64,000 bases of DNA from an uncultured Anaerolineae bacterium (GTDB taxonomy: Bacteria; Chloroflexota; Anaerolineae; VGOG01): NCBI GenBank assembly GCA_964390805.1, contig CAYMKL010000010.1, positions 12,158 to 76,157 of the forward strand, read 5' to 3'. Below the pieces are notes generated by a model. That model saw only the letters and a program-made list of their open reading frames with translations, made no database searches and had not been told where the DNA came from. Positions 4,045-30,648 of this stretch are shown here, one piece after another (the first letter of the stretch is position 1; every line of letters starts with the position of its first letter). A program made the position numbers and the translations under genes.

Positions 4045-4047
4045 CGA

Positions 4048-5340: not shown

Positions 5341-5347
5341 TGGAGGG

Positions 5348-5447: not shown

Positions 5448-5469
5448 TGCCAAGACAAGGAGTGGAGCC

Positions 5470-5913: not shown

Positions 5914-5927
5914 AGCCGAGGAAGATT

Positions 5928-6092: not shown

Positions 6093-6122
6093 AGCCATTT
6101 TTGAATAGTGAGGAGGCAAAAA

Positions 6123-6905: not shown

Positions 6906-6932
6906 GCAGACCTTCTGCGAAGGGAGACGGGA

Positions 6933-8073: not shown

Positions 8074-10383
8074 ATGAAAGAAATCAGCCGACGAACCTTT
8101 CTTAAATTGGCCGGAGTAAGCGCTGCTGCTGCGGCCCTATATCAGTCAACTGGCTCCATCTTGGCCGCGCTGAACATTATTGACCAGGAAACCTCTCCTG
8201 GCGCAGAGAGGTGGGTGCCCAGCGTTTGTCAACTTTGCCCGGCCGAGTGTGGCCTTCGGGTACGAGTGGTGGGAGACGTGGCGGTCAAGATCAAGGGTAA
8301 CCACCAAAACCCCTGTAACCAGGGTCGAACCTGCCCGAAGGGACAGGTCGGCTTGCACCTTTTGTACAATCCCGACCGGGTGAAGACACCGCTCAAGCGG
8401 GTGGGGGAACGGGGAGAGGGCCGCTGGCAGGCCATATCTTGGGACGAAGCCATTGGCGCTGTGGGTTCCCGGCTGTTGGCTTTGCGTCTGGCCGGCACGC
8501 CGGAGCGCATGGCTTTCCTCTATGAGCGGCCGGCTGGGCTGCTAGAGGAAACCCTCACCTACTTTTGCCAGGCCATGGGCACGCCGAATGTGATGGATAT
8601 GCGCCCAGATGCGCTCAGTAAAGCCGTCCTTCTAACTCAGGGCTGGGATGCCCAACCTGGCTACAATCTGGAGCTCACGCGCCACCTTTTGAGCTTCAAC
8701 TATGCGCTCCTGGAATCGGCCCAGCCCACGGTGCGTCTGCTGGCTGCGTACAGCTTCATGCGCCGCGGACGGCCCGGCGACCGAACGTATATGGTGCAAA
8801 TCGAGCCGCGCCTGTCGGTGACGGGCGCCAAGGCCGATGAGTGGGTGCCTATCAAGCCGGGCACCGAGGGTTTGTTGGCTCTCGGTCTGGCCTGGGTGAT
8901 TGTTTTCGAGCACCTCTACGACAAAACCTTCGTTTCCCAGCACTGCCACGGATTTGAGGAGTGGAGCCAAGCCGTGCTGCAAGACTATACTCCAGAGCGA
9001 GTCTCGCAGCTCACTGGCGTCAGTGAAAGGACGATAACACGGCTGGCGCGCGAGTTCGCCGACACGTCGCCAGCCCTGGCCATAGGCGGCGACGCAGTGG
9101 GGCAGCAGACTAACGGCCTCGCCAGCCAACTAGCTATCCACTCGCTGAACGCGCTAGTCGGCTCCATAGACGTGCCGGGTGGCGTGATGATGCAGCGTCC
9201 AGTGCCCCTCACGCCCTGGCCCGATGTATTCATGGACGACGTAACGATCGAGGGGCTGGCCCGACCCCGTATTGATGGGCCTGAGCGCTATCTCCTGGCG
9301 CGCTCAGCAATCCACCACCTGCCAAAGGCGATTCTGACCGAAGATCCCTATCCGCTGGAGGCGCTGCTGCTCTATCGCGCCAACCCCATTCACGAACTAC
9401 CTGACCCGGAAGCGTGGCGGGAGGCCCTGAAACGGGTGCCGCTCATTGTCAGCTTTGATTCCTTTGTTGAAGAAACATCGGCCTACGCCGATTACATCCT
9501 TCCTGACCACACTTTCCTGGAGCGGTGGATCGCCGCGCCGCTGATGCCTTCGCTGGGCTACCCGGTGTTGGCGTTTGGGCAGCCCGTCGTGGCGCCGCTC
9601 TACGATACGCGGGCCTTCGGCGACGTGCTCATCCAGCTTGCCAATCAGGTTGGGGGGGCGCCCAAAGCGAACTTCCCCTGGAACGACCACCGCGAGTTGT
9701 TGCGCTTCCGGTTCGAAGACCTGGTGGCGGCAGGACATGGCACGATTCGAGCTGACACAATGGATGGCTTCTGGCAGGAGTTGGAGGAGCGCGGCACGTG
9801 GTTCAGCACACCTTACCACTTCGCGGGGGGAAATGGGAGGAACCCGGAGGGATGGGGGACGGTATTGGCCACGCCTTCCGGAAAGTTCGAGTTCACACCC
9901 CAGGTGTTCCAAAAGCAGCTCTCGTTGTCGCCGCCCTACTACAGAGTTCCGCGCTATGTGGGTGAGGAAGATGAGTTTCCCTTCCACCTGCAGTTCTATA
10001 CCCTGATGAACCAGGGAAGTGGGCCGGGAGCGGCAAATCTGCCCCATTTGCACGAACTCTACGGCCTACACATCAAGCAGATATGGGGAAACTGGGTGGA
10101 AATCAATCCTGAGACAGCTCACGAACTGGGTATTGAGGAATGGGATGAAGTGTGGGTCGAGTCGCTGGTCGGTAAGATCCGGCTCCCGGCGAGGCTCTAC
10201 CCGGGCATACCACCTGAGACGTTGTGTATACCCACGGGACTGGGCCACACTGCGGGCGGCCAGTGGACAAAGGGCATTGGCGTCAACCCGGAAACTCTGG
10301 TTAGTAGCAGCTACGTGGACGAGCTGAGCGGACTGGTCGCCCGGCAGGGCGTACGGGTCAAGATATACAAAGTGGAAGGATAG
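8074..10383 (+). CDS. Tat-exported molybdopterin oxidoreductase catalytic subunit (paralog of 1014..3332)
   Basis: Tat signal 'SRRTFLKLAGVSAAAAALY'. FS0 motif 'CQLCPAECGL'. Collinear similarity to the first copy along the whole length. Confidence 0.85.
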   Translation: MKEISRRTFLKLAGVSAAAAALYQSTGSILAALNIIDQETSPGAERWVPSVCQLCPAECGLRVRVVGDVAVKIKGNHQNPCNQGRTCPKGQVGLHLLYNPDRVKTPLKRVGERGEGRWQAISWDEAIGAVGSRLLALRLAGTPERMAFLYERPAGLLEETLTYFCQAMGTPNVMDMRPDALSKAVLLTQGWDAQPGYNLELTRHLLSFNYALLESAQPTVRLLAAYSFMRRGRPGDRTYMVQIEPRLSVTGAKADEWVPIKPGTEGLLALGLAWVIVFEHLYDKTFVSQHCHGFEEWSQAVLQDYTPERVSQLTGVSERTITRLAREFADTSPALAIGGDAVGQQTNGLASQLAIHSLNALVGSIDVPGGVMMQRPVPLTPWPDVFMDDVTIEGLARPRIDGPERYLLARSAIHHLPKAILTEDPYPLEALLLYRANPIHELPDPEAWREALKRVPLIVSFDSFVEETSAYADYILPDHTFLERWIAAPLMPSLGYPVLAFGQPVVAPLYDTRAFGDVLIQLANQVGGAPKANFPWNDHRELLRFRFEDLVAAGHGTIRADTMDGFWQELEERGTWFSTPYHFAGGNGRNPEGWGTVLATPSGKFEFTPQVFQKQLSLSPPYYRVPRYVGEEDEFPFHLQFYTLMNQGSGPGAANLPHLHELYGLHIKQIWGNWVEINPETAHELGIEEWDEVWVESLVGKIRLPARLYPGIPPETLCIPTGLGHTAGGQWTKGIGVNPETLVSSSYVDELSGLVARQGVRVKIYKVEG

Positions 10384-10390
10384 GTTACGT

Positions 10391-11080
10391 ATGCCGAGAT
10401 GGGGCATGGTCATTGACCTCGACAAGTGTACCGGCTGTCAGGCATGTAGCGTGGCTTGCCGGATGGAGAACAACATTCCCTTCGCTGGGCCAGAGGAAGC
10501 GGATTTGAGCCGTGTCAAATGGTGGCACAAGGTGTTGCGCTTTGTGGAAGGAGAATACCCCAATGTTCACATCACGTTCATGCCCCGGCCTTGCCAGCAC
10601 TGCGACAAACCGCCTTGCGTGAACGTCTGTCCGGTAGGAGCCACCTACAAGGACGAGGAAGGCGCCGTGCGGATGAACTATGACCGCTGTGTCGGCTGTC
10701 GCTTCTGCGCCTCAACCTGCCCGTATGGGGCGCGCCACTTCAACTGGTACGACCCAATCTACCCCGAGGAGATGCGGGCTGCCCTCAATCCAGACGTGCC
10801 CGTTCGCCCCCGCGGAGTGGTGGAGAAGTGTACCTTCTGCATTCATCGCCTGGAGAAGGCCAAGCGTAAGGCGGCTGAGGAGGGGCGTGAACTGGTGAAC
10901 GCCGAATTGGTCAACCTGCCGGCCTGCAACGAGGTCTGTCCGGCCTCCGCCCGTTATTTCGGCGATCTGGATGATCCGGAAAGCACCGTCTCACGCCTAG
11001 CCCACAGCTCGCGGGCCTTCATACTATTAGAGGAGCTGGGCACCTTTCCCAAGGTGTTTTATCTGAAAGCGGCAAGCTAA
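10391..11080 (+). CDS. 4Fe-4S electron-transfer subunit (paralog of 3355..4044)
   Basis: 'MPRWGMVIDLDKCTGCQACSVACRMEN' and three further Cys clusters. Same length as the first copy (229 aa). Confidence 0.9.
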   Translation: MPRWGMVIDLDKCTGCQACSVACRMENNIPFAGPEEADLSRVKWWHKVLRFVEGEYPNVHITFMPRPCQHCDKPPCVNVCPVGATYKDEEGAVRMNYDRCVGCRFCASTCPYGARHFNWYDPIYPEEMRAALNPDVPVRPRGVVEKCTFCIHRLEKAKRKAAEEGRELVNAELVNLPACNEVCPASARYFGDLDDPESTVSRLAHSSRAFILLEELGTFPKVFYLKAAS

Positions 11081-11101
11081 CGGAAGAGAAAGAGACGATA
11101 T

Positions 11102-12439
11102 ATGTCATTTGAGGGTTATAGCATTCAGGAAAGACGTACTCTGGCAAGACCGGTGGATGAGGACGCCATCCTGTTCGAGCCGCTCCAGCGCACTGGATGG
11201 AAGTTCTGGGCTATCGTGGCCATCCTAGTGTACGTCATCATCTTTGGGGTGTCGGCCTACTACCGCCAGCTTACCAAAGGGTTGGGCATCACCGGCCTGA
11301 ACTACCCGGTCTACTGGGGAATGTACATCATCAACACCATCTTTTTCATCGCCATCAGCTACGGTGGCACGCTCACCTCCGCCATTCTGCGAATCTTCGG
11401 TATCCGGTGGCGGACGCCGATCACCCGCGCCGCCGAGGTGATGACCGCTTGCGCCCTCTCCATCGGGGCGCTGAACATCGTCCTGGACATGGGGCGGCCC
11501 GACCGGGTGTTGAACTTGATCCTGTACGGCCGATGGCAGTCGCCCATTCTGTGGGACTTCTACGCCGTTAGCCTGTACATGGCCTGTAGCCTACTCTACC
11601 TCTACTTGCCGCTGATACCGGACATCGCCGAGTTGAAAGAGCGGTTCCCTCGCCGCCGATGGCTCTACGGTCCCCTGTCGCTGGGCTGGACAGGCACCCC
11701 ACAGCAAAAGAGGCGGCTGGACAGGATCATAGACATCATGGCCTATGCTATGGTTCCCATCGCGGTGATGGTACATACTGTTCTCTCCTACCTGTTTGCT
11801 CTGACCACACAGCCGATGTGGCACAGCACGCTCATGGGGCCCTACTTTGTCATGGGGGCCGTCTACAGCGGCATGGCTGGGTTAGTCATCGTCATGGCGC
11901 TTCTCCGGCGGTTCCTCCACCTGGAGCGCTACCTTGAGCCCAAGCACTTCAAATACATGGGACTGATGATCCTGGGTATGACGTCCGTCTGGCTCTACTT
12001 CACTTTCTCAGAGTATATCACCACCTACTACGGCCAGGACCCGTCTCACCTAGAGGTGTTCCATGCTAAGTTCTTCGGCGAGTTCGCGCCTTATTTCTGG
12101 ATTCAGGTCGTATTGTGCCTGGTGGTTCCTGTGCTGGTGTTGAGCTTCCGGCGGACACGCACCATCGCGGGCACGGTCTTTGCCAGCGTGTTGATTCTCG
12201 TTGGCATGTGGTTGGAGCGGTTCCTGATCATCGTTCCCACTCTCACCCATCCTCGCCTGCCACTTGACCTGCCCTTCACCATAGGCAAATACCAGGCCAC
12301 CAGCGCTGAGTGGGCCATCATGGCTGCCAGTGCAGCGGCCATTGCGTTACTCTACTTGATGTTCATCAAACTGTTTCCCATCGTACCCGTCTGGGAGATT
12401 CGCGAGGAGCGGGAAACCCATAAACCCGTAAATCCGTAG
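11102..12439 (+). CDS. NrfD/PsrC-family membrane subunit (paralog of 4048..5340)
   Basis: Polytopic membrane protein of 445 aa. Similar to the first copy, e.g. 'WLERFLIIVPTLTHPRL' vs 'WLERYIVIIPTLTRPRL'. Confidence 0.8.
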   Translation: MSFEGYSIQERRTLARPVDEDAILFEPLQRTGWKFWAIVAILVYVIIFGVSAYYRQLTKGLGITGLNYPVYWGMYIINTIFFIAISYGGTLTSAILRIFGIRWRTPITRAAEVMTACALSIGALNIVLDMGRPDRVLNLILYGRWQSPILWDFYAVSLYMACSLLYLYLPLIPDIAELKERFPRRRWLYGPLSLGWTGTPQQKRRLDRIIDIMAYAMVPIAVMVHTVLSYLFALTTQPMWHSTLMGPYFVMGAVYSGMAGLVIVMALLRRFLHLERYLEPKHFKYMGLMILGMTSVWLYFTFSEYITTYYGQDPSHLEVFHAKFFGEFAPYFWIQVVLCLVVPVLVLSFRRTRTIAGTVFASVLILVGMWLERFLIIVPTLTHPRLPLDLPFTIGKYQATSAEWAIMAASAAAIALLYLMFIKLFPIVPVWEIREERETHKPVNP

Positions 12440-12520
12440 GTTCGTAAATTCGGGGGCACGAATCTACGAGTTCCGAATGTACGAATCTACCAACTCACAA
12501 ATTAGAGGAGGAAAAAGCAA

Positions 12521-13303
12521 ATGGATCAACTAGTAAGTCTGCTACCAATTATCTTTCCTGTCGCGATCTTGGTGGGCCTCATCGTCGTCCCTGCCGTCAA
12601 GATCGTCTATCAGTACGAGCGCGGTGTACTGTTCCGCTTCGGTAGGTTCATAGGCCTCCGCAAGCCGGGCATCAACCTGATCTTGCCCTGGATTGACAGG
12701 CTGGTCAAGGTTGACCTGCGAACCAGAACGGTGATCCTGACACCCCAGGAGGTCATCACCCGCGACAACGTGACTGTCCACGTGGACGCGGTGGTGTACT
12801 TCAACGTCTTTGACCCAGAGCGCGCTGTCATCCAGGTTGAAGAATACGCCATGGCCACCGAGCAGTTGGCCCTGACCACTCTGCGGAGTGTGCTGGGCCA
12901 GTCCGATCTCGACGAGCTCCTGGCCCATCGTGACCGCATCAACGAGCGCCTGCGGGACATCATTGACGATCATACCGAAGATCCGTGGGGCGTGATGGTC
13001 ACGCTGGTCGAGGTGCGGGACGTGTTGTTGCCAGAAGGGATGCAGCGGGCCATGGCCCGCCAGGCTGAGGCCGAGCGAGAAAAGCGAGCCAAGATCATCC
13101 ACGCCGAGGGTGAGGAAGCGGCGGCGCAAGCCCTGGCCAATGCAGCCAGGACCATCGGTGCCGCACCGCCAGCGATACAACTGCGCTACTTGCAGACGCT
13201 GGTCGAGATGGCTGGTGAAAGAAACAGCACCATTATCCCCTTGCCGGTGGACATTGTCTCTTTTTTGGGCGAAGGGCTACGGCAGGGGAGCGACTCAAAG
13301 TAG
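12521..13303 (+). CDS. SPFH/band-7 protein (paralog of 6123..6905)
   Basis: The band-7 core is nearly identical to the first copy ('TRDNVTVHVDAVVYF', 'AMARQAEAEREKR'). Confidence 0.85.
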   Translation: MDQLVSLLPIIFPVAILVGLIVVPAVKIVYQYERGVLFRFGRFIGLRKPGINLILPWIDRLVKVDLRTRTVILTPQEVITRDNVTVHVDAVVYFNVFDPERAVIQVEEYAMATEQLALTTLRSVLGQSDLDELLAHRDRINERLRDIIDDHTEDPWGVMVTLVEVRDVLLPEGMQRAMARQAEAEREKRAKIIHAEGEEAAAQALANAARTIGAAPPAIQLRYLQTLVEMAGERNSTIIPLPVDIVSFLGEGLRQGSDSK

Positions 13304-13384
13304 CCATTGATCATCAACCTGGGAGTATGGCTGGAGCGTTCCCGCCATGACGCAGCCACGCCTGGGTAAGACATCTGGAAATCA

Positions 13385-13477
13385 GGGTTTTCGCTAGCGG
13401 GTAGATTCTGGTTAGCGAGCAGACTGGAGCTATCACATCTCCTCGCTTTTGGACGCAAAAACCTGGTTTCCAGTTGA
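13385..13477. promoter_or_regulatory. second copy of the CTGGAAAYCAGGTTTT ... AAAAACCTGGTTTCCAG inverted-repeat element
   Basis: The arms at 13385-13401 and 13461-13477 are reverse complements with 2 mismatches. The arm sequence is the same as at 5348-5447. Confidence 0.45.
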
Positions 13478-13501
13478 ATCAGATTACGGAAGGAACCAAG
13501 A

Positions 13502-14593
13502 ATGAGATATTGGATATCTCGTCACTATTGGCTAGTAGTCATTGTGCTGATCCTGGCGGCTCTGCTGCTTACTGTAGGGCCAACCTCGGCTCAGCCCCCC
13601 GTACCCCACGGTGTAATAGAGGGGGATGACTGCCTCAGTTGCCACGAGGCGGGTGTAGCTGATGCGCTTCGCCTGTCGCGAGACCACATGGGGCGCAACA
13701 ACGAAGACTGCGCCATCTGCCACGAACCCAGCGGTGCATTCGCAGACGACACACCCCACCCGATAGCCGGTCGAGAGGATTGTCTCTCGTGCCATAGCGT
13801 GGGGATAGGCACTATATTGGCCAGGAGTCACCTGGAACGCACGAACGACCAGTGCGAACTATGCCACCTGCCCTCGCCTGCTGTAGAGGAGCCTACTCCG
13901 ACCCCGGCCACAGCGAAACCTACTCCCACCCCAACCCCCCACGCCACTCCAGAGGCAGGCCCTCCCCCTTCTGGGGCAGAGACCTGCGCGGCGTGTCATC
14001 AGCGTACGGCCGTTGATGAAGGACATGCTACGTTCACCAGCCAGCCCCTCGGTGACCAAGAGGCCGGTGCAACGCTCTTCACTCAGCAGTGCGCGACCTG
14101 CCACGGCGAGGATGGCGCCACGCCGGTGGGCGAAGATGGGAACATCATCAACTCAGAGGAGTACTTGAGCGCTCACGACGACGCTGACATTCTGAAGGAC
14201 ATCGGCATCAACCCTCACGGCGCGACGCCTGCCTTTGTCGAGGACTACGGCGGTCCCCTCTCGTGGGAGGAGGTGTTGGATCTGGCAGCCTTCGTTCGCT
14301 TGTGGGGACCGATGGCTGCGCCACACGCAATGCCTGGGCCAACCTATGCCAGTACCATTGGTTCACTGCTGACCGAGCGGTGTGGAGCCTGTCATGGATC
14401 TGCTGGCGGTCTGAGTGTGGCGGACTATGATGCACTGATGGCTGGGGGCTCTTCAGGCCCTGTGGTGGTGCCCGGCGATCCGGAGGGAAGCAGCCTCGTT
14501 GAGTTGCTGCGGGGGGGACACTTTGCTCAGTTGAGCGAGGCGGAACTAGACCTGTTGATCGAATGGATCGCCAATGGAGCACCAGGGGAGTAA
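13502..14593 (+). CDS. heptaheme c-type cytochrome (paralog of 6933..8042)
   Basis: 7 CXXCH motifs. Pro/Thr-rich linker 'EEPTPTPATAKPTPTPTPHATPEAGPPP'. The C-terminal 'LDLLIEWIANGAP' is conserved with the first copy. Confidence 0.85.
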   Translation: MRYWISRHYWLVVIVLILAALLLTVGPTSAQPPVPHGVIEGDDCLSCHEAGVADALRLSRDHMGRNNEDCAICHEPSGAFADDTPHPIAGREDCLSCHSVGIGTILARSHLERTNDQCELCHLPSPAVEEPTPTPATAKPTPTPTPHATPEAGPPPSGAETCAACHQRTAVDEGHATFTSQPLGDQEAGATLFTQQCATCHGEDGATPVGEDGNIINSEEYLSAHDDADILKDIGINPHGATPAFVEDYGGPLSWEEVLDLAAFVRLWGPMAAPHAMPGPTYASTIGSLLTERCGACHGSAGGLSVADYDALMAGGSSGPVVVPGDPEGSSLVELLRGGHFAQLSEAELDLLIEWIANGAPGE

Positions 14594-14599
14594 GGCAAG

Positions 14600-16362
14600 A
14601 TGAGGCGTGTGTTTAGTACCAAGAACTGGTCTTCAGAGGCCAAACCCATCCTGCGATGGGCTGGCCTTATGCTGCTGGCGGCCGGTCTGTTAGTGGCCTG
14701 TGCCCAGCAGTCAACAGAGACTACCACTGTGAAGTCTGGCCAACAGCGCCGCCCGTTACTATTCTAATCGAGGCCACGCCCGCACCACCGGTCGAGCCGG
14801 TGGCAATGACGTGGCGCGAGTCGGTGGATGCCTTGTTGGTCGAAGCGGACATCGGCGCGGAGTCGCAAGGGTGTGTCAACTGCCACCTGGCCACGACGCC
14901 TAAGATGGTGGAACAATGGGTCTCGTCGGAGCACGCAGCAGAGAGTGTTGATTGCCTGGAGTGCCACACAGCCCAGGAGGGGGACTGGGACTACACGGAA
15001 CACCATGGCAACGTGGCTGTCGCCACCAATCCAACGGCCGGTGACTGCGCCAACTGCCACGAGCAGGAGTACGAGGAATTCAGCCGGAGCAAGCACTCAG
15101 CCCTGGCGATGATCTTCTTCTCCGCCTCGTTCGACCGAAACGTCCTCGAGCCGACCATCGCCACCAAGCACGGCTGTCAGGAGTGCCACAACATTGGCCA
15201 CTTCTGGCCCGACCAAAGCGTGGGCGAGTGTGACGCCTGCCACCCCAAACACTCCTTTGACGTGGCCGTGGCCCGCAATCCCTACACTTGCGGCGAGTGT
15301 CACATCGGCCCAGATCACCCGCACATCGAAATCTGGGAAGAGTCCAAACACGGCAACGTGTTCATGAGCAACCCCGAAAACTGGGAGGAGCTGGGCTACG
15401 AGGCCGTGAAGGGGGAGCCGCCACCCTTCGACGCGCCGACCTGCACCACTTGTCACATGGACGCCACGGTTAACCTGCCGGCCACGCACGATGTCGGCTC
15501 TCGAATGGCCTGGGAGACCCAGTCGCCGTGGACGATCCGCGCTACCGAAGCCTGGGGAGGCGGGCTGACCTGGGAGGAGAAGCGGGCGAACATGACCGCG
15601 ACCTGTCTCCAATGCCACGCCCAGCCTTTTGTTGACCGCTACTTGCTGGAAGGCGATATGGCCGCGCTCCAGTACAGCGAGATCTTCCGCGAGGGCAAGC
15701 GCTGGTTGAACGAGATGAACGAGGCTGGCATCATCTTGACGGCCGGTTTCGAGGGCCTGGCTCCCTTTGGCACAGCCGGCTACGACGAAGTTCCCGAGGA
15801 GATCTCATATCACATCTGGCACCACGAAGGCCGACGCTACCGCCACGGCGCGCTGATGATGGCAGCCGACTACACCCAGTGGCACGGCATCTGGGACTTG
15901 CAGCATGATCTGATAGAGATTATCCGCTACGGGGCCGAGCACGGCCTGCCCGAAGCTGAGGCTTGGATGGCGTCGGACGATCCGGCCAAGTTCTGGCTCT
16001 ATCCGTTCTACGATGTGCCCGGTTCGGTCTGGGGCATTGACACCATCGCCTACCGCATGGGAGACGATTGGACGACCAAGATCTGGATGAACCGCAACGG
16101 CCAGGAAGGTCTCGACGCCTACTGGGAAGCCGCCTATGCCAACGTCCAGGCGGCATACGAGGCGGGCCTTTTCTCCGATGAGCAGTGGTCGCTTTATCGG
16201 CAGCTCTTCGAGAACCGCGAAGTCGAGAACGGCAACACCTATCCGCTGCCGGATCTCTTCCAGGTGCACCTGGACGGGAAGGCGGCCGATGGCGCAGCGG
16301 CCAGTGAATACGGGGCGGGGTTGCAATTGCCCGGTGCAGATGGCTGGGACTACTCTCCGTGA
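14600..16362 (+). CDS. octaheme c-type cytochrome (HAO/OTR-like lipoprotein) with an apparent single-base frameshift separating the lipoprotein signal (14600..14767) from the mature domain (frame of 14656..16362)
   Basis: Frame 2 reads 'MRRVFSTKNWSSEAKPILRWAGLMLLAAGLLVACAQQ...' (lipobox LVAC) and stops at 14767. Frame 1 continues 'PPVTILIEATPAPPVEPV...' with 8 CXXCH motifs. One extra C in the run near 14748-14756 would fuse the two. Confidence 0.6.
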
Positions 16363-16422
16363 GATGGGTGGTCCTCGAGCGAACGTGATGCGGGATTGAC
16401 GGTGATCAATGAAAGACCTGCC

Positions 16423-17895
16423 ATGGATTCTAAGATACGATCTCGCTTGAGACCCCTTAGAACAAGCCTGCGCGTCAGAGTCGCCTTGGGCGTCGCGTTG
16501 CCGATCGTGTTGGTGCTGTTCTCGCTGTCCTTGATACACTACTGGCGCGAGCGTCAACTGCTGGAATACCAGATTGGGCTGACCGCGTTGCAGTTGGGCG
16601 ACATGATGGTAGGCAACCTGCGCCATGCCATGATGGCCAACGACCGCGAGATGCTCGACCAGATCCTCGCTGACGTGGGCAGAATGGAAAACGTTCATCA
16701 GGTGCAGATTCTGGACCTCGAAGGCCGGGTGAAAGTAGACAGTCGTGGTGAGGAGGAAGGGGAAACTATCTGGCAGCGCGACGATCTTGGATGCATCGAA
16801 TGTCACCAGTCGCCAGTCGAGCCCTGGCCCCGCGTGGCGGAGTTGCCCACCTCGACTGGCGTGGTGCAGATTTCCATACCGATCGAGAACGAGCCAAGTT
16901 GCACCGGTTGTCACACAGAGGACACTCCTCATTTAGGAGAGTTACTCTTTGAAGTGTCTCTCATTGATGTCGGAGAGCATCTCCTCCACAACCTTCAGGT
17001 CGACTTGGCTGTCTTGGTCGGAAGCACGGTGTTGGTGACATTGGGCCTGTATTCGCTGGTGCATTTGCTGGTGGTGCAGAGGGTAGAGGCATTTCGTCGC
17101 CCTCTAGCGGAGTTCGCCGCTGGCGATTTCACCTCCCGATTGCCATCCCCCTTGGTTCCAGCCGATGAGCTGGATGAGTTGGCCAATACCTTCAACCAGA
17201 TGGCGCACGAACTCGAGCGCCGTGGTCGCGAGCAAGAGGAGCGCAGCGAACTGCGGCAGCGGGCCATCGTGGAGGAGCGCGAACGCATTGCCCGTGAACT
17301 GCACGATGGGCTGGCTCAACTGCTTGGGTACGTCAACACCAAGACGATGGCTGTGCGGCTGATGCTGAAGAATCAGCAGGTGGAGGCTGCTGATCGGCAC
17401 CTCCTTCAACTCGATGAAGCCACCCGTGAGCTGTCCGTTGATGTGCGCCAGGCAGTGCTCGGGTTGAGGACAGCGGGGCAAATCGGTGACGGACTGACCG
17501 CCATGCTCGGGGACTTCGCCGCTCAGTTTAGCCGCTTCGGCGGTGTCCCGGTCGAGGTCGTAATCGCGCCGGAGATCCAGGGCCTTGCACTGACTCCCGA
17601 GGCTGAACTGCAATTGCTTCGCATCGTCCAGGAAGCGTTGACCAACGTCCGAAAGCATGCTTCGGCTACCCGGGCGTGGGTGAGCTTGGAGGTCAACGGC
17701 AACATTCTTGAACTAACAATCGGCGACAACGGCAATGGATTCGATGTGGAAGGTCATCGTCTCAATGATCGGTCACGCTTTGGATTGAGCACGATGCGAG
17801 AGCGGGCTGAGGCCATTGAGGCCGAGTTCAACCTGGACTCCGTGCCAGGTGCCGGAACCCGGGTCACGGTACGGCTAGCTGAGAGAGAGGGGTAG
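16423..17895 (+). CDS. sensor histidine kinase (HisKA_3/NarX-LiaS type) with a periplasmic domain carrying two CXXCH c-type haem motifs
   Basis: TM1 at ~residues 28-50. Periplasmic segment with 'CIECH' (nt ~16792) and 'CTGCH'. TM2 at ~200. HAMP-like region. HisKA_3 H-box 'RIARELHDGLAQLL'. HATPase_c 'ITIGDNGNGFD...GLSTMRERAEAI'. Confidence 0.85.
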   Translation: MDSKIRSRLRPLRTSLRVRVALGVALPIVLVLFSLSLIHYWRERQLLEYQIGLTALQLGDMMVGNLRHAMMANDREMLDQILADVGRMENVHQVQILDLEGRVKVDSRGEEEGETIWQRDDLGCIECHQSPVEPWPRVAELPTSTGVVQISIPIENEPSCTGCHTEDTPHLGELLFEVSLIDVGEHLLHNLQVDLAVLVGSTVLVTLGLYSLVHLLVVQRVEAFRRPLAEFAAGDFTSRLPSPLVPADELDELANTFNQMAHELERRGREQEERSELRQRAIVEERERIARELHDGLAQLLGYVNTKTMAVRLMLKNQQVEAADRHLLQLDEATRELSVDVRQAVLGLRTAGQIGDGLTAMLGDFAAQFSRFGGVPVEVVIAPEIQGLALTPEAELQLLRIVQEALTNVRKHASATRAWVSLEVNGNILELTIGDNGNGFDVEGHRLNDRSRFGLSTMRERAEAIEAEFNLDSVPGAGTRVTVRLAEREG

Positions 17896-17899
17896 GTAT

Positions 17900-18547
17900 A
17901 TGCGCGTCCTGGTAGCTGACGACCACCCTTTGTTTCGCGATGGCATAGTTAGCCTGCTTGAGGCGGCTGGCTTTGATGTCGTTGGACAGGCCGGCAACGG
18001 TCGGGTAGCTGTCGAGATGGCGCTGGGCCTGCGCCCCGACCTGGTACTGATGGACATCACCATGCCGCAGATGACGGGCCTAGAAGCATTGCGCTTGATC
18101 AAGGCTGAGTTGCATGAGACACAAGTGGTGATGCTAACTGTCTCCGACGACAACGCCGATTTGATTGAAGCTGTCAAGGCAGGGGCGCAGGGCTACCTAC
18201 TCAAAAACCTGAACGCCAGCGAGTTTCTGGAGATGCTTGCGGGACTGGAGCACGGCGAGGCTGCCATCACCCGTAAGACTGCCACCCGCTTGATCGAGGG
18301 CTTTGCTGACCGGTCTCGCCCGCACTCCGAGCCGTTGGAAAGCCTTACCCAACGGGAGATAGAAATCCTTCGCTTGGTGGCCGAAGGCCTCCCGAACAGG
18401 GCCATTGCCCAGGCGTTATTCGTCAGCGAGAATACCATTAAATATCACATGAAGAACGTCCTGCAAAAATTGGGCGTTCAGAACCGGACCGAAGCCGCCA
18501 CTTCCGCCCTCCGCGCTGGGCTTCTCAAGTCTGACTCTCCCCGCTAG
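17900..18547 (+). CDS. NarL/FixJ-family response regulator (REC + LuxR HTH)
   Basis: 'MRVLVADDHPLFRDGIVSLL...LVLMDITMP' (REC). C-terminal 'LTQREIEILRLVAEGLPNRAIAQALFVSENTIKYHMKNVLQKLGV' (LuxR HTH). Confidence 0.9.
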   Translation: MRVLVADDHPLFRDGIVSLLEAAGFDVVGQAGNGRVAVEMALGLRPDLVLMDITMPQMTGLEALRLIKAELHETQVVMLTVSDDNADLIEAVKAGAQGYLLKNLNASEFLEMLAGLEHGEAAITRKTATRLIEGFADRSRPHSEPLESLTQREIEILRLVAEGLPNRAIAQALFVSENTIKYHMKNVLQKLGVQNRTEAATSALRAGLLKSDSPR

Positions 18548-18659
18548 TTTCTTCGCCGCCCCACCCTACCTATTAGGGTAGGATGGACCTACCCCTCAGA
18601 GTTGATTCCTTCTCTATCCTGACTACCCCTATTTGCGCTCGGATTCATACCGATGGGTC

Positions 18660-18689
18660 TTGCCAGATGCGATCATTTTGTGTTATAAT
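18660..18689 (+). promoter_or_regulatory. sigma70-like promoter with extended -10 (TTGCCA - 18 nt - TGtTATAAT)
   Basis: -35 TTGCCA at 18660-18665; TGn extended -10 with TATAAT at 18684-18689. Lies upstream of the ORF at 18751. Confidence 0.55.
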
Positions 18690-18750
18690 TGCCGAAGGGA
18701 AGCTCTGAAAGGTTCAATGATGTCAAGCCGTGTGGTGGGAGGTGTGCCCG

Positions 18751-19083
18751 GTGCGGAGGCGCGTCGTCATCCTATCAGGCCATTCGCTCTTTGCTGAGGG
18801 CGTTGCTAGCCAGCTCCGACAGCACCCACAGGAGTTGGAGGTTGAGGTTGTGGATATCCGGCAGCCGGATGCGATGGCCCAAATCATCGCTGTCCGGCCG
18901 TCCGCCGTGATCCTGGACACCACCGACTCTGAGGTCGCCCGGCTTGGCCTTATGAGCAGACTGCCACTTGTGCTTCCGGAGCTCAAGATTGTCTGCCTGG
19001 ACTCACAGCAGGAACACATCCAGGTGGTGACAAGCGAGCAGCTTCCAGCGGATCAGGTGCGTGATCTGCTCGATGTGATTTAG
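18751..19083 (+). CDS. stand-alone receiver-like (pseudo-receiver) domain protein
   Basis: REC-like fold signature ('VVILSGHSLF...AVILDTTD...LKIVCLD') but lacking the N-terminal acidic DD pair. GTG start at 18751 follows a GGGAGG RBS. Confidence 0.45.
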   Translation: MRRRVVILSGHSLFAEGVASQLRQHPQELEVEVVDIRQPDAMAQIIAVRPSAVILDTTDSEVARLGLMSRLPLVLPELKIVCLDSQQEHIQVVTSEQLPADQVRDLLDVI

Positions 19084-19177
19084 CACTTCCCACAGTCAAT
19101 GGGATGAAAAGAAAGGAGGGTGATAACCAAAGAAGATAGTTCGGAAGACGTTTGAACAGAGAATCAGAGGAGGATAT

Positions 19178-22100
19178 ATGAGAGACATCAGAAAGTTAGT
19201 GGTTCTATGTGTTGTTCTGACGGCCGTGGTGCTCGTTGTCGGCGGCTGTACGACTCCCACACCTGAGACCATCGAAAAGGAAGTGACCAGGGAAGTGCCG
19301 GTCGAAGTCACCCGAGAGGTGGTGGTGGAAAAGGAAGTCACCGTGGAGGTGGAGAAAGAAGTGCCGGTCGAAGTCACCCGCGAGGTAGAGGTAGAGGTCA
19401 CGCGAGAGGTGGAGGTAGAGGTCACGCGGGAGGTGGAGGTAGAGGTGCCGGTGGAGGGAGAGCCAGGCGTGGAGGCGCCCTTCGAGGCGCTCTGGGCTGG
19501 CTCCGGGCACGCCGATGCGGAGGCCGAGGCTTTCAGACACTGGGACGAGGACGATCCAGTAGAGGTATCCACTAGTTGCGCCAAGTGCCATAGCTCCTAT
19601 GGGTATCTGGACTTCCTGGGCGCAGATGGCACCGAAGCCGGTGTGGTGGATAATGCTGCGGCTGTGGACTCGGTGATTGACTGCACCACGTGCCACAACG
19701 AAGCAGCCGCCAGCCTGACCAGCGTGGTCATGCCCTCTGGCGTCGAACTCACCGGTCTCGGCGCAGAGGCCCGCTGTATGCAGTGTCACCAGGGACGCCA
19801 GTCCACCGTCAGTGTCAACGATCACGTCGCTGCGGCAGGTGTCGCCGACGACGACACAGTCAGTGAGGATCTTGCTTTCCGTAACGTCCACTACTTCGCG
19901 GCCGGCGCCACGCTCTATGGCGGGCAGGCCATGGGCGGCTATCAGTACGATGGCAAGACCTACGACGCCAGGTTCGCGCACGTCGAGGGGATAGACACCT
20001 GCATAGACTGTCACGATCCCCACACTTTGGAAGTCAGGGTGGAGATGTGCAGCGCGTGTCACGTGGATGTGTCCAGCAAAGAAGACCTGGCGGACATCCG
20101 ACTGCTGGGCTCTGGAGTGGATTTCGATGGCGATGGCGAAGTCAGTGAAGGCATCGCTGTCGAAATCGAGCACCTTCAGGAGGTCCTCTATGAGGCTATC
20201 CAGGCTTATGCCAGTGATGCTGGAACTCCCGTCGTGTACGACTCCCACGCTTACCCCTACTTCTTCATAGACACCAATGCCAACAGCGAAGCCGATGCTG
20301 ACGAGGCCAACTACGGCAACAGGTACAATGCCTGGACCGGACGTCTGCTCAAGGCAGCCTACAACTACCAGTACTCCAAGAAGGATCCTGGCGCGTTCGC
20401 TCACGGCGGCAAGTATGTCATCCAGCTCCTCTACGATTCCATTGAGGACTTGGACGCTGGCCTTGTAGCGGGTCTGCATCGCGACGACGCAGGGCACTTC
20501 GCCGGATCAACAGAGGCATGGAGGCACTGGGATGAGGATGGCGAAGTTCGCAGTTCCTGCGCCAGGTGTCATAGTGCCACTGGCCTGCCGTTCTACCTGG
20601 AAACGGGTGTCAATGTAGCCGAGCCTCTGGCCAACGGGATGCTGTGTTCCACCTGCCATGACCCCGAGACGTACGCTCCGTACGCTGTGGATGAGGTGGA
20701 GTTCCCCAGCGGCGCGACCGCCAGCTTTGGCGAGGGGGCGACTTCGAACCTGTGTCTGAACTGTCACCAGGGACGCCAGTCCACCGTCAGCGTCAACTCC
20801 AGAATTGGCGACAACGAGGACGACGCTGTGGTGGAGGGGTTGGGCTTTGCCAACGTCCACTACTTCGCGGCCGGCGCCACCATGTTCGGCGGGGAGGTCA
20901 TGGGCGGGTATCAGTACGATGGCAAGACCTACGACGTCAAGTTCGCCCACGTCGAGGGGATAGATGCTTGCGTGGATTGCCACGACGCTCACACCTTGGA
21001 AGTCAAGGTGGAGGTCTGCAGCGCGTGCCACGCGGGCGTGTCCAGTGCAGAAGACCTGGCGGACATCCGCTTGCTAGGCTCCATTGCGGATTACGATGGT
21101 GATGGTGAAGCCACCGAAGGCATTGCCCACGAGATTGAGCACCTGACGGAGGTTCTCTACGGGGCTATCCAGGCCTATGCCGCAGACGTGGCTGGCACCC
21201 CCATCGTGTACAACTCGCACCGCTACCCCTACTGGTTCACCGATGCCGAAGAAAGATACGGCACCTGGACGCCTCGTCTGCTCAGAGCGGCCTACAACTA
21301 TCAGTACGCCAAGAAGGATCCCGGCGCGTTCGCTCACGGCGGCAAGTACCTCATCCAGCTCCTCTACGATTCCATTGAGGACCTGGATGCTGGCCTGGTG
21401 GCGGACATGCACCGCGACGATCCAGGGCACTTTGCTGGGTCTACGGAGGCATGGCGGCACTGGGATGAGGATGGCGAGGTCAGTGCTTCGTGCGCCAAGT
21501 GCCACAGTGCCACTGGCCTGCCCACCTACCTGGCAACGGGAGAAAATGTAGCCGAGCCCTTGGCCAATGGGATGCTGTGCACCACCTGCCACGATGATCC
21601 CGTCGCGTACACCCGTTACGCTGTGGACGAGGTGGAGTTCCCCAGCGGAGCCGTGGCAGGCTTTGGCGAGGGGGTGGATTCCAATCTCTGTCTGAACTGT
21701 CACCAGGGACGCCAGTCTACCGTCAGTGTTGATGAGCACATCACTGCGGCGGGCGTCGGTGACGACGAAGTCAGCGGAGATCTTGGTTTCCGTAACGTCC
21801 ACTACTTTGCGGCCGGGGCCACGGTCTTCGGTGCGGAGGCTATGGGGGCGTACCAGTACGAGGGCAAAGAGTACGTCGGAGCGTTCGCTCACGTACCGGG
21901 CTTCGACACTTGCACCCAGTGCCACGACACTCATAATCTCGAAGTCAAGGTAGAAGCCTGTGGCACGTGCCATCCCGGCAAAGAGAGTGTCGAAGACATC
22001 CGCATGAGCACCACGGACTTCGACGGGGACGGCCACGCGGACGAAGGCATCGCCCACGAGATCGACCACTTGCAGGAGACTCTCTACGGAGCCATCCAGG

Positions 22101-22381
22101 CTTACGCCAGCGAGGTTACCACGCCCATCATATACGACTCACACTCCTACCCCTACTTCTTCGTGGACACCGACGGGAACGGTGAGGTTGATGCGGGCGA
22201 GGCTAACTACGGCAACAGGTACAGAGCCTGGACACCGCGTCTGCTCCGGGCTGCCTATAACTATCAGTACGCTGCCAAGGATCCCGGCGGGTTTGCTCAC
22301 AACGGCAAGTATGTCATCCAGGCGCTTTACGATAGTCTGGACGACATCGGCGCCGATACCGCTGGCATGGTTAGGCCTTAG
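19178..22381 (+). CDS. large lipoprotein multiheme c-type cytochrome: 15 CXXCH in three tandem pentaheme domains, preceded by an EVTREV repeat linker
   Basis: Signal plus lipobox 'LVVGGC'. Repeat linker 'EVTREVPVEVTREVVVEKEVTVEVEKEVPVEVTREVEVEVTREVEVEVTREVEVEVPVE'. Three ~320-aa repeats each with CA(K/R)CHS, C(T/S)TCH(N/D), C(M/L)(Q/N)CHQ, C(I/V/T)(D/Q)CHD and C(S/G)(A/T)CH. Confidence 0.9.
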   Translation: MRDIRKLVVLCVVLTAVVLVVGGCTTPTPETIEKEVTREVPVEVTREVVVEKEVTVEVEKEVPVEVTREVEVEVTREVEVEVTREVEVEVPVEGEPGVEAPFEALWAGSGHADAEAEAFRHWDEDDPVEVSTSCAKCHSSYGYLDFLGADGTEAGVVDNAAAVDSVIDCTTCHNEAAASLTSVVMPSGVELTGLGAEARCMQCHQGRQSTVSVNDHVAAAGVADDDTVSEDLAFRNVHYFAAGATLYGGQAMGGYQYDGKTYDARFAHVEGIDTCIDCHDPHTLEVRVEMCSACHVDVSSKEDLADIRLLGSGVDFDGDGEVSEGIAVEIEHLQEVLYEAIQAYASDAGTPVVYDSHAYPYFFIDTNANSEADADEANYGNRYNAWTGRLLKAAYNYQYSKKDPGAFAHGGKYVIQLLYDSIEDLDAGLVAGLHRDDAGHFAGSTEAWRHWDEDGEVRSSCARCHSATGLPFYLETGVNVAEPLANGMLCSTCHDPETYAPYAVDEVEFPSGATASFGEGATSNLCLNCHQGRQSTVSVNSRIGDNEDDAVVEGLGFANVHYFAAGATMFGGEVMGGYQYDGKTYDVKFAHVEGIDACVDCHDAHTLEVKVEVCSACHAGVSSAEDLADIRLLGSIADYDGDGEATEGIAHEIEHLTEVLYGAIQAYAADVAGTPIVYNSHRYPYWFTDAEERYGTWTPRLLRAAYNYQYAKKDPGAFAHGGKYLIQLLYDSIEDLDAGLVADMHRDDPGHFAGSTEAWRHWDEDGEVSASCAKCHSATGLPTYLATGENVAEPLANGMLCTTCHDDPVAYTRYAVDEVEFPSGAVAGFGEGVDSNLCLNCHQGRQSTVSVDEHITAAGVGDDEVSGDLGFRNVHYFAAGATVFGAEAMGAYQYEGKEYVGAFAHVPGFDTCTQCHDTHNLEVKVEACGTCHPGKESVEDIRMSTTDFDGDGHADEGIAHEIDHLQETLYGAIQAYASEVTTPIIYDSHSYPYFFVDTDGNGEVDAGEANYGNRYRAWTPRLLRAAYNYQYAAKDPGGFAHNGKYVIQALYDSLDDIGADTAGMVRP
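19290..19470 (+). repeat. in-frame tandem nucleotide repeats encoding the (EVTREV/EVEV) linker
   Basis: 'gaggtagaggtcacgcgagaggtggaggta' is reiterated about 3 times, with degenerate flanking copies. Confidence 0.8.
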
Positions 22382-22592: not shown

Positions 22593-24113
22593 TTACGACG
22601 CCAGAAGTTGGTCAAAGGCGTAGCGCTTGGCCACGTTCTGCAGTTCGGGAGCCAGTTGGCGCAGCGTCCGCTCGAAGGATTGGCGAGCATTCTCCCGCCC
22701 GAAACGGTGACTGACTACGTCCAGTTGCGTCAGCAGGAAACGGCGGTACATCTCCACCAGGTCATCGGTCCTCAGTTGGGGATCGGCCTGATCCTCGATC
22801 CTTCCCCGATTGAGGCGTAAGGGCAGATGGGCACATAGCTGGTTGACCTCCTCCTCGCAGGCGCGGTCTTCAGGTGAGGCTCGCCAGGCTATGGTGCTAC
22901 TGCACATCAGCTCGGCGATCTCGCGGAAGACGCGGCGCAGGCGGATCTTGTCCAGGTCGGCAGTGCGCACGACTCCCACTGCGACCAGGCAGTAAAAGCC
23001 CCGGCTGACTTCGAAGACGGTCAGGCCCAGCTCACGGGCGATGGTTGCCACGTCCTTGACACCGTCAACGGCAGCCACGATCTGCTCCTCGGCTGGCGTC
23101 AGGGACAGACCATCCATGCGCTCGTAAGCGGGGCCCAGCTCAAAGATGGCGTCGGCCGAGGGGACCAGCCGCTGGATGATGGTCCAGTTGTCCACCCAAC
23201 GGCAGCCGCACAGGATTAGGTCCTCGGCGCTGAGAGCCAGGGGGACACACCAGTCCTCGCAGCCCGTCTCCTGATCGAAGGTGAATTGCCCTTCCTGCCA
23301 GCGAAAGAGATCGCATAGCCCTTCCAATACTTGTTCGGGAGGCGGTGGGGGAGGGACCGGCTCGTCCTGGCGCAGGCAGGCGGCACAGACAGGTCTCCCC
23401 CCTTCAAAGCTGAGGGTGCGGATCACAACCCCATCGGTGATGGTGAGTGTGCCGCTGTGCCGACCAGAGACGATGAGGCGAATGAGATCGGGCAAATGAT
23501 AATGGCGCAGGTTACCGCTGAGGATCATCAGTCCTCGCCGGGTGCCTGCTTCGGCATGGTGTGCCTCTCCCTCACCTTGAATATCACGGATGACGTCGGC
23601 CAGCCAGTCATGCTCCATCTCCAGGAAACGACACGTATGATCGAGGATGGCCAGCTTGAGGGGCGATTGTCCGTCATCCTGTTCCGCAGCCAGGGCCGCC
23701 TGGACTTTTTGGGTCTCCTCGGCCAGGAACGCCTGGCGCTGTTCCAGCAAGGGGATGGCACGCTGCAAGGGGAGCTTGTTCAACAAGTGGATGACCAGGT
23801 CATAGGCGAGATAGGTCTTCTCCTGGCTGGCTGCCTGGATCTCCATGGCCGCAAAGAAGGCGCTCCGGCCTTCCTCAGTGAGACGGTAAGTGGACTTGCG
23901 AGCACTGCGGGCTCCTCGCTGACGCGACTCGGCCACCAGGCCCTGATCGCGCAGCTTGCCCAGCGAATAGTAGACGCCGGCCATACTGACGTTGAACCAG
24001 GCATCAATGCCCTCGGCCTGGATCTGCTGGTAGAGCTCGTAGCCGTGCATGGGCCGGTCCAGCAGCAAGCCTAGAAGCAGTAGGTCCGTTTTGGTCGCGA
24101 CTGGCTTAGTCAT
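22593..24113 (-). CDS. PadR-family transcriptional regulator with a long C-terminal extension (~400 aa)
   Basis: N-terminal PadR wHTH 'LLLLGLLLDRPMHGYELYQQIQAEGIDAWFNVSMAGVYYSLGKLRDQGLV...STYRLTEEGR'. Start chosen at MTKPV (GGGAGG RBS); an alternative start is at 24140. Confidence 0.7.
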   Translation of the reverse strand: MTKPVATKTDLLLLGLLLDRPMHGYELYQQIQAEGIDAWFNVSMAGVYYSLGKLRDQGLVAESRQRGARSARKSTYRLTEEGRSAFFAAMEIQAASQEKTYLAYDLVIHLLNKLPLQRAIPLLEQRQAFLAEETQKVQAALAAEQDDGQSPLKLAILDHTCRFLEMEHDWLADVIRDIQGEGEAHHAEAGTRRGLMILSGNLRHYHLPDLIRLIVSGRHSGTLTITDGVVIRTLSFEGGRPVCAACLRQDEPVPPPPPPEQVLEGLCDLFRWQEGQFTFDQETGCEDWCVPLALSAEDLILCGCRWVDNWTIIQRLVPSADAIFELGPAYERMDGLSLTPAEEQIVAAVDGVKDVATIARELGLTVFEVSRGFYCLVAVGVVRTADLDKIRLRRVFREIAELMCSSTIAWRASPEDRACEEEVNQLCAHLPLRLNRGRIEDQADPQLRTDDLVEMYRRFLLTQLDVVSHRFGRENARQSFERTLRQLAPELQNVAKRYAFDQLLAS

Positions 24114-24180
24114 CGGTCCGCCTCCCTGTCTGCTGCTCATAGTATACCAGAAAACCTGGGAAAAATCAACTCAAACATTC

Positions 24181-24209
24181 TTGACAAAAGGCGAAAAACG
24201 TGTTATAAT
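24181..24209 (+). promoter_or_regulatory. consensus sigma70 promoter (TTGACA - 17 nt - TATAAT, extended -10 TGtTATAAT)
   Basis: TTGACA at 24181-24186; TATAAT at 24204-24209. Nearly identical to the promoter at 30766-30794. Confidence 0.7.
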
Positions 24210-24230
24210 CCACGCTAAGGTATGAATACT

Positions 24231-24252
24231 AAAATACTCAGTCCTGAGTATT
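24231..24252. promoter_or_regulatory. 9-bp inverted repeat AAATACTCA-gtcc-TGAGTATTT downstream of the -10 (candidate operator or 5'-UTR hairpin)
   Basis: Perfect palindrome immediately after the promoter and ahead of the RBS of the 24287 gene. Confidence 0.5.
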
Positions 24253-24286
24253 TACATCCAGGCTTGTCTCGCTGAGGAGAGAAGAA

Positions 24287-29515: not shown

Positions 29516-29533
29516 GGAGGAGCGTTACCTCCG

Positions 29534-30622: not shown

Positions 30623-30648
30623 AAAGCTCGCTCTTGGGCAAAACCACT

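Follow-up and report, generated by a model that had tools for sequence, protein, structure and literature searches.

What does a histidine kinase perceive when the domain that it exposes outside the cytoplasm contains two CXXCH motifs, and which genes does it control in response? The question is raised by a locus of an uncultured Anaerolineae bacterium (Chloroflexota), found in a stretch of 64,000 nucleotides of contig CAYMKL010000010.1 (assembly GCA_964390805.1, positions 12,158 to 76,157 of the forward strand), the whole of which is called here the window. In the original prediction, made from the sequence of the window, a kinase of this type paired with a NarL-type regulator was proposed to be a rare haem-c sensor governing a neighbouring island of electron-transfer genes. 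Our analysis makes it probable that this two-component system senses via an outward-facing sCache domain with two covalently bound c-type haems. The kinase is one of the haem-c sCache sensor kinases, a kind already known, and among these it is a little-studied two-haem relative of the Geobacter sensors, and its gene is organised as follows:

16423-17895, plus strand: sensor histidine kinase of 490 residues, with the order first transmembrane helix (TM1), predicted two-haem sCache sensor, second transmembrane helix (TM2), HAMP, HisKA_3, HATPase_c (Pfam).
16480-16542, plus strand: TM1, residues ~20-40, after a K/R-rich cytoplasmic N-terminus (hydropathy, charge count).
16543-16998, plus strand: extracytoplasmic sCache/PDC-type sensor domain, residues ~41-192 (AlphaFold2, Foldseek, PF21563).
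16999-17070, plus strand: TM2, residues ~193-216 (hydropathy; unbroken helix 181-232 in the AlphaFold2 model).
17068-17217, plus strand: HAMP domain, residues 216-265 (PF00672, E 2e-8).
17275-17475, plus strand: HisKA_3 dimerisation and phosphoacceptor domain, residues 285-351, with His294 (PF07730).
17605-17883, plus strand: HATPase_c catalytic domain, residues 395-487 (PF02518).

The description of the protein as a HisKA_3 kinase with two CXXCH motifs between TM1 and TM2 is borne out by Pfam and by hydropathy. Conserved residues 13-21 favour a start at the ATG at 16423 or the TTG at 16396 over the database gene call at 16486. The kinase has only two hydrophobic segments, with centres near residues 29 and 205, and its N-terminal 19 residues include seven K/R against one D/E. 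Taking into account these two segments, the K/R-rich N-terminus, and the HAMP and kinase core that follow TM2, both CXXCH motifs fall outside the membrane. As read from these sequence features, the topology is N-in, with the loop of residues ~41-192 extracytoplasmic, and a cytoplasmic location of the motifs, named at the outset as an outcome that would count against a haem-c sensor, is not what the topology analysis gave. The domain had been called periplasmic; it does lie outside the membrane, but the term is loose, and since the Anaerolineae are usually considered to have no outer membrane, "extracytoplasmic" is the safer wording. The kinase core is of the DesK/VraS type in Foldseek comparisons, and His294, Asp295 and Gly296 are invariant in a 97-sequence alignment. 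The protein is not a NarX or NarQ equivalog, since it scores 104 bits against the NarQ cut-off of 553 and 83 bits against the NarX cut-off of 578, only the kinase core matching these NCBIfam models.

The kinase contains exactly two CXXCH motifs, at residues 124 and 160, to which a methionine of the N-terminal helix has to be added:

16792-16806, plus strand: CXXCH motif 1 (CIECH, residues 124-128), predicted added haem site in the beta2-beta3 connection (kept in 221/221 relatives; in gaps against 3b47).
16900-16914, plus strand: CXXCH motif 2 (CTGCH, residues 160-164), predicted equivalent of the Geobacter haem site (aligned with CQSCH of 3b47 and 3b42; kept in 218/221 relatives).
16630-16632, plus strand: codon of Met70, predicted distal ligand of haem 2 (aligned with Met60 of GSU0582 and GSU0935).

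Conservation of these residues is strict. A search of 5.8 billion proteins gave 120 listed homologues of 50-100% identity and near full length (most with more than 90% coverage), and all 120 have exactly two CXXCH motifs. In the 97-sequence alignment the invariant residues of the sensor domain are Cys124, Cys127, His128, Cys160, Cys163, His164 and Gly172, and the six cysteines and histidines are likewise invariant in a diverse alignment of 43 sensor sequences at 23-49% identity. A wider set of 221 relatives, all of at least 300 residues and aligned to the sensor profile down to ~27% identity, keeps motif 1 without exception and motif 2 in all but three members; in some of them motif 2 is written CX3CH or CX4CH, both known haem-binding forms. 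Loss of the motifs in orthologues, the other outcome set in advance against the proposal, was thus looked for and not found. Haem site 1, formed by Cys124, Cys127 and His128, is by its sequence pattern an added site and the most conserved feature of the family, and we infer that each of the two motifs carries a haem.

It might be argued that the motifs are not haem sites at all, and that an ordinary ligand-binding sCache domain uses them to coordinate a metal or as a thiol/disulfide switch. The haem of this protein is predicted from sequence, and AlphaFold2 models the apo form without difficulty. However, the histidine following each cysteine pair is conserved together with the cysteines (221 of 221 for motif 1, 218 of 221 for motif 2), the variation of motif 2 among relatives is confined to the haem-binding forms CX2-4CH, and motif 2, along with the distal methionine, aligns with a haem c site established by crystallography. 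Moreover, the genome encodes many multihaem cytochromes, so that the maturation machinery must be present; a scan of ten further proteins of the window revealed no cytochrome c maturation genes. A role without haem is, taken together, very improbable.

The fold of the sensor was predicted with AlphaFold2 (AF2), which models the full protein with a mean predicted local distance difference test score (pLDDT) of 82 and the sensor alone with a pLDDT of 78 and a predicted template modelling score (pTM) of 0.70, giving an sCache/PDC fold. A long helix, residues 16-71, is continuous with TM1 and is followed by a second helix, a beta-sheet, and a short helix, residues 124-128, that bears motif 1. Motif 2 is situated between the strands 147-155 and 170-179, and the latter, the last of the domain, leads straight into the TM2/HAMP helix 181-232. 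When the sensor model was compared with the Protein Data Bank (PDB) by Foldseek, GSU0935 (3b42) came first, with an E value of 9e-6, and GSU0582 (3b47) seventh, amid the sensor domains of WalK, DctB, KinD and CitA. Identity in the alignments to 3b42 and 3b47 is 18-21%, and the root mean square deviation to 3b42 is high, which may be due to the crystal forms being domain-swapped dimers (PMC8396549). At the sequence level the sensor matches 3b47 with an E value of 0.009, CQSCH aligning residue for residue with CTGCH 160-164, and motif 1 falls in the gaps of this alignment, as an insertion of ~10 residues. The PF21563 profile matches residues 147-180 only, with 29.0 bits against a gathering cut-off of 27, a small margin. 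Homology to haem-c sensors of PAS-like type, now classed as sCache, had been anticipated, and it is supported by these three comparisons; judged by alignment and model, the fold and haem site 2 (Cys160, Cys163 and His164, with Met70) are homologous to those of GSU0582 and GSU0935. PF21563-type sensors are defined by one haem per domain, which is not the case here, with two conserved CXXCH motifs.

In the alignment, Met70 stands at the position of Met60 of the Geobacter proteins, if His143 is taken as the motif histidine in the numbering of PMC8396549. It is a methionine in 201 of the 221 relatives (91%), and another residue takes its place in each of the three relatives without the motif 2 histidine, compared with 17 of the 218 others. 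This joint loss of Met70 and the motif 2 histidine speaks for Met70 as the haem 2 ligand. As for haem 1, no universally conserved distal methionine or histidine was found among the 221 relatives, and the candidates His68 (76%) and His170 (60%, falling to 32% in distant relatives) are too little conserved to be assigned.

A mechanism can be proposed from what is known of the single-haem Geobacter domains, which are high-spin in the ferric state, become low-spin on reduction through Met60, and bind nitric oxide (NO) and carbon monoxide (CO) by displacing Met60 (PMC8396549). By analogy with them, the signal is inferred to be the redox state or NO/CO. Like Met60 of the Geobacter sensors, Met70 would bind or leave the iron of haem 2 when this haem is reduced or takes up NO or CO, and the switch would move the TM1-linked helix and be passed on to the HisKA_3 core with His294. 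Such a route to the kinase core is suggested because the Met70 helix continues into TM1 and the last beta-strand into TM2/HAMP. The most likely part for haem 1 is that of a relay, through which the sensory haem would come into equilibrium with multihaem cytochromes or quinol dehydrogenases nearby. Once phosphorylated, the NarL-type regulator would occupy a TACCC-type palindrome and boxes in 18564-18659, and the bound regulator would control the promoter at 18660-18689, driving the genes for an atypical receiver and a 15-haem cytochrome.

The same comparison leads to the main rival account, according to which the kinase is mainly a sensor of small ligands (NO, perhaps CO or a nitrogen oxide) and not a redox reader: a gas would bind a haem with an open or weak distal position, and the cytochromes would be induced for detoxification or respiration. 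The displacement of Met60 by NO and CO in GSU0582 and GSU0935 (PMC8396549) speaks for it, as do the NO-sensor properties reported for sCache_haem domains when these are attached to signalling modules (PMC12889525), the lack of a conserved distal ligand at haem 1, and the gene that directly precedes the kinase, whose family handles hydroxylamine, NO and nitrite:

14656-16362, plus strand: HAO-family octahaem cytochrome, 60 bp 5' of the kinase gene (8 CXXCH; PDB 4qo5 with E 2e-32, HAO with E 7e-21).

However, this HAO-like neighbour occurs only in the window, and general electron-transfer modules (multihaem cytochromes, CytB, NapC/NirT, a bc complex) accompany the kinase in the other nine loci that were compared. 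Fusions of the two-haem domain to NapC/NirT cytochromes, lacking a signalling output, point to a role in electron transfer. In addition, sensing of redox state does not exclude sensing of ligands, and the two may coexist. A kinase devoted mainly to small ligands is, on balance, a possibility that we hold to be rather unlikely.

A two-motif kinase sensor is no new idea, since an additional haem-binding motif in sensors of the GSU0582/GSU0935 type has already been described for GSU0591 and GSU0599 of Geobacter and for Adeh_2011 and Adeh_3383 of Anaeromyxobacter (PMC3831638, PMC8396549); PMC8396549 and the Anaeromyxobacter survey PMC3831638 credit the two-motif variants to Londer et al. 2006. A recent preprint (Deshpande et al. 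2026, PMC12889525) describes the sCache_haem or Tll0287 (DUF3365) family, which is built around one CXXCH, reports that its signalling members behave as NO sensors, and finds the family rare or absent in Chloroflexota. The DUF3365 profile gave no match in the kinase at E <= 0.01 and is absent from the precomputed Pfam domains of the 120 listed homologues, and the two-haem clade has probably been missed by this family profile. The rarity and novelty attributed to such kinases were overstated, taking into account both the known Geobacter and Anaeromyxobacter forms and an exhaustive phmmer search with the 150 residues of the sensor only, which retrieved 445 cluster representatives at E <= 1e-3. 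Among the best 149 of these, 121 have two CXXCH motifs ~34-39 residues apart, the remainder being mostly fragments. A profile search with the sensor alignment returned only 5 matches from 590 candidates, a figure set by the word-index limit and no sign of rarity.

The output side of the system was examined in the sequence that follows the kinase gene, which comprises these features:

17900-18547, plus strand: NarL/VraR-type response regulator, receiver plus GerE helix-turn-helix, starting 4 bp past the kinase stop (PF00072, PF00196).
18564-18583, no strand assigned: palindrome CCCTACCTATTAGGGTAGGA, candidate binding site of the regulator (perfect TACCYN4RGGTA).
18589-18659, plus strand: direct CTACCCC boxes at 18589 and 18623, and GATGGGTC box at 18652-18659 abutting the -35 hexamer.
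18660-18689, plus strand: predicted sigma-70-type promoter TTGCCA-18-TATAAT with a TG extension (11 of 12 consensus matches).
18751-19083, plus strand: stand-alone atypical receiver-like protein of 110 residues (profile of 7 orthologues).
19178-22381, plus strand: 15-haem cytochrome c, the likely target of the promoter (15 CXXCH; Pfam cytochrome c7/c3 families).

The pairing with a NarL-type regulator, upstream of a gene with 15 CXXCH motifs, is as had been described. The regulator matches VraR (E 3e-41) and NarL (E 5e-40) in the PDB and has Asp7, Asp8 and Asp52 of the acidic pocket, and it is not a NarL equivalog, with 185 bits against the NCBIfam cut-off of 250. In an alignment with NarL it keeps the residues that we take to be the DNA-contacting lysines of that protein. 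The profile of the atypical receiver matches the receiver domains of VraR, NarL and CheY, with E values of 3e-4 to 6e-3; the acidic DD pair is changed to SG and the aspartate at the phosphoacceptor position is retained. Its gene comes directly after the regulator gene in two of the orthologous loci (L003 and L004) and nearby in two others (L088 and L090), and homologues with 23-24% identity also follow paralogous kinase-regulator pairs in L007 and L091. The protein is possibly a third member of this system.

The spacer of 203 bp past the regulator gene holds the palindrome, the boxes and the predicted promoter, this last being the only promoter-like site within 16200-19300. The half-sites of TACCC type in this region resemble, on our assumption, the heptamer TACYYMT recognised by NarL. 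CCCTACCTATTAGGGTAGGA is the only perfect TACCYN4RGGTA in the window. A palindrome of consensus CCyACCy-N4-GGGTRGG, TACCC boxes and a promoter follow the regulator gene in 7 of 7 orthologous loci, namely the window and L003, L004, L006, L088, L089 and L090, the kinases of which are only 50-63% identical. As a background, the ACCY-N4-GGGTR core was counted in 823 kb of unrelated DNA, where it has 26 matches, or ~1 per 32 kb; this background consists of 80 loci from kinase-core scans, which match only residues ~240-490 and are uninformative on the sensor. A second, independent high-scoring site is found at position 115 of L090, 5' of a multihaem-CytB-NapC operon. In the window, a one-mismatch pattern gave 3 matches against 2.8 expected, and no site besides that at 18564 exceeded 10 bits. 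The search for regulator sites proposed for the upstream regions of the genes at 1014, 19178 and 24287 therefore succeeded in part: the site at 18564-18583 precedes the genes of the receiver and the 15-haem cytochrome, and no such site precedes 1014 or 24287, whose control via this palindrome is rejected for want of evidence. Being a single site in 64 kb, the palindrome supports control of the downstream operon and not of the whole island.

Alternatively, the pair might stand beside the cytochrome genes by chance or regulate distant genes, the palindrome belonging to another regulator, such as the PadR/DUF4388 protein encoded at 22593-24140. The binding of the regulator to the palindrome is a prediction, the motif occurs once in the window, and other regulators are encoded nearby. 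Nevertheless, the palindrome follows the regulator gene in every one of the orthologous loci whatever the other neighbours are, at the low background frequency given above; its inverted-repeat form is typical of NarL/LuxR-type helix-turn-helix dimers, and the paralogous pairs of L007 and L091 carry a different conserved upstream sequence. This alternative is, for these reasons, improbable. The paralogous cassettes (L007 15526-18217 and L091 12077-14724) consist of a two-CXXCH kinase, a regulator and a small receiver-like open reading frame, beside the orthologous pair, and are preceded by GTCACAATTGGCGCTC..CCCCGATAT, after a terminator-like hairpin. Some genomes thus hold two such systems with distinct operators.

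Another palindrome, (G/A)AAACCnGGTTT(C/T), at 5350, 5433 and 13458, occurs in the window at a frequency compatible with chance (3 against 2.0 expected). It lies after NrfD1 and upstream of the cytochrome gene at 13502, and twice just past the regulator gene in L004 (12132-12165); a terminator-like hairpin and another operator are both conceivable.

Several points weigh against redox sensing by two haems coupled to the downstream promoter. The sensor-only model has a pLDDT of just 56-68 around motif 1, and the AF2 models, being haem-free, give neither a haem-to-haem geometry nor a distal ligand for haem 1. The PF21563 score barely exceeds its cut-off, and only a minority of the listed homologues have this match on record. 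Haem, redox or ligand data for any two-haem member were not found in the literature, nor was any biochemical or structural study of one, the published mentions that were found being at sequence level, and the result on signalling sCache_haem proteins (PMC12889525) favours ligand over redox sensing. On the output side, the scoring matrix of the palindrome was trained on the same sites that score highest. The palindrome was assigned to this regulator by position and by a presumed likeness to the NarL heptamer, and another regulator could bind it.

The pair lies among genes for electron transfer. In the window, the order is the tandem oxidoreductase modules, the HAO-family gene, the kinase-regulator pair, the 15-haem cytochrome, the PadR/DUF4388 regulator and the NrfC/NrfD/19-haem operon, the modules being:

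1014-8042 and 8074-14593: tandem, diverged module pair, each with a PsrA/PhsA-like molybdopterin oxidoreductase (twin-arginine signal), a 4Fe-4S protein, NrfD, an SPFH/Band 7 protein and a 7-haem cytochrome.

The proteins of the two copies are 43-67% identical. Neither a promoter nor a terminator was predicted between the HAO-family gene and the kinase gene, and the two are possibly co-transcribed. The 15-haem cytochrome consists of three repeats of ~315 residues, with five haems each and 64-66% identity, preceded by a low-complexity EVTREVEVEV repeat at the N-terminus; no match to it was found in the PDB or NCBIfam. The kinase-regulator pair adjoins cytochrome or respiratory-complex genes in 10 of 10 loci, these being the window and nine from other assemblies, with kinases 50-63% identical. 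The commonest neighbour in the nine is an operon of multihaem cytochrome, CytB and NapC/NirT-PSCyt1; a Rieske/cytochrome b complex, NrfCD and haem biosynthesis genes are also found. The idea of a regulator of the electron-transfer island is supported in part, by this synteny and by the palindrome and promoter before the 15-haem operon; no link to the 1014 and 24287 operons was seen.

Other observations concern the remainder of the window. The PadR plus DUF4388 regulator gene (22593-24140, minus strand) is divergent from the NrfC/NrfD/19-haem operon, and the spacer 24141-24286 holds a strong TTGACA...TATAAT-like promoter; this protein is more likely than the haem kinase to be the local regulator of that operon. 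A protein with 19 CXXCH motifs (25923-27476, plus strand) follows the NrfC/NrfD-like genes, and farther on are a double-rhodanese protein (27591-28724) and at least 11 CXXCH motifs in frame +2 at ~29426-30800 on the plus strand. By eye, and unconfirmed, a CBS-pair protein lies between NrfD1 and SPFH1 (5471-5905, plus strand), and the end of an ArsR/SmtB-type helix-turn-helix protein (~760-1013, plus strand) just 5' of the first molybdopterin oxidoreductase gene.

The two-haem domain is not limited to kinases of this architecture. The outputs attached to it are HAMP-HisKA_3-HATPase, HAMP-GAF-HisKA_3-HATPase, HAMP-GGDEF, and a hybrid HisKA kinase with a receiver. Five proteins of ~400 residues from Anaerolineales and metagenomes (P0190, P0205, P0210, P0232 and P0275) are the NapC/NirT fusions lacking a signalling output, in which TM1, the two-haem sCache domain, TM2, a short cytoplasmic loop and TM3 are followed by a five-haem cytochrome of NapC/NirT type. 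These fusions suggest that the domain can work as, or beside, an electron-transfer module. A distant branch, with CX4CH as motif 2, is named in Rubrivivax, Rhodoferax and other Betaproteobacteria, and the named close relatives of the kinase all come from Chloroflexota, Anaerolineae or Anaerolineales assemblies; the taxonomy of the relatives rests on these few names. A wider proposal can be advanced tentatively, as a conjecture more likely to need revision than to stand whole: the two-haem sCache domain would be a distinct and widespread sensor class of Chloroflexota, Betaproteobacteria and others, missed by single-haem profiles, in which haem 1 would wire haem 2 to multihaem cytochromes or NapC/NirT quinol dehydrogenases. 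By accepting electrons, the kinase would read the flux of respiratory or extracellular electron transfer, as part of a fixed Anaerolineae cassette of kinase, NarL-type regulator, TACCC-box promoter, atypical receiver and multihaem cytochrome.

The gain is incremental, since two-motif variants had been flagged in 2006 and neither the fold nor the haem site nor the signalling logic is new. Added by this analysis are the extent of a two-haem clade in Chloroflexota and its strict conservation, the correspondence of site 2 and Met70 with the Geobacter site, the conserved cassette with its predicted operator, and the NapC/NirT cytochrome fusions. Few ways are known in which bacteria perceive redox state or gases beyond the cytoplasmic membrane; haem-c Cache sensors are one of them, and only single-haem members have been studied. 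The locus offers a compact and well-conserved two-haem example with a predicted output of one promoter and one 15-haem cytochrome operon. Its phylum is one in which such sensors are rare or absent according to a recent survey. The locus could be used to study the control of multihaem cytochrome expression in Chloroflexota, and to decide between a relay and a second sensory site as the role of the second haem.

Compared with known systems, the pair shares with NarX-NarL, DesK-DesR and LiaS-LiaR (VraS-VraR) the HisKA_3 kinase core and a regulator made of a receiver and a GerE domain, and with NarX-NarL also a candidate DNA site formed by an inverted repeat of TACCC-type half-sites, presumably akin to the NarL heptamer. 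It differs from NarX in that the sensor is not a four-helix nitrate-binding module, and its scores are far under the NarX, NarQ and NarL equivalog cut-offs. The sCache_haem/Tll0287 family (PMC12889525) has in common with it the Cache fold and a cytochrome-like CXXCH helix before the last strand, with kinases, GGDEF proteins and chemoreceptors as outputs, but it has one CXXCH where two haem sites are predicted here, and its DUF3365 profile is not matched. The two-component protein GSU0599, and GSU0591, Adeh_2011 and Adeh_3383, share an extra motif, a likeness drawn from their published description. The closest are GSU0582 and GSU0935, the chemoreceptors of Geobacter sulfurreducens (3b47 and 3b42; PF21563), which likewise have an extracytoplasmic domain of sCache/PDC fold between two transmembrane helices, followed by HAMP, with a CXXCH just ahead of the last beta-strand and a distal methionine on the N-terminal helix, Met60 there corresponding to Met70 here. 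The kinase of the window differs from them in its second, fully conserved CXXCH, in a HisKA_3 output instead of a chemoreceptor, and in belonging to the Chloroflexota and not to the Desulfobacterota.

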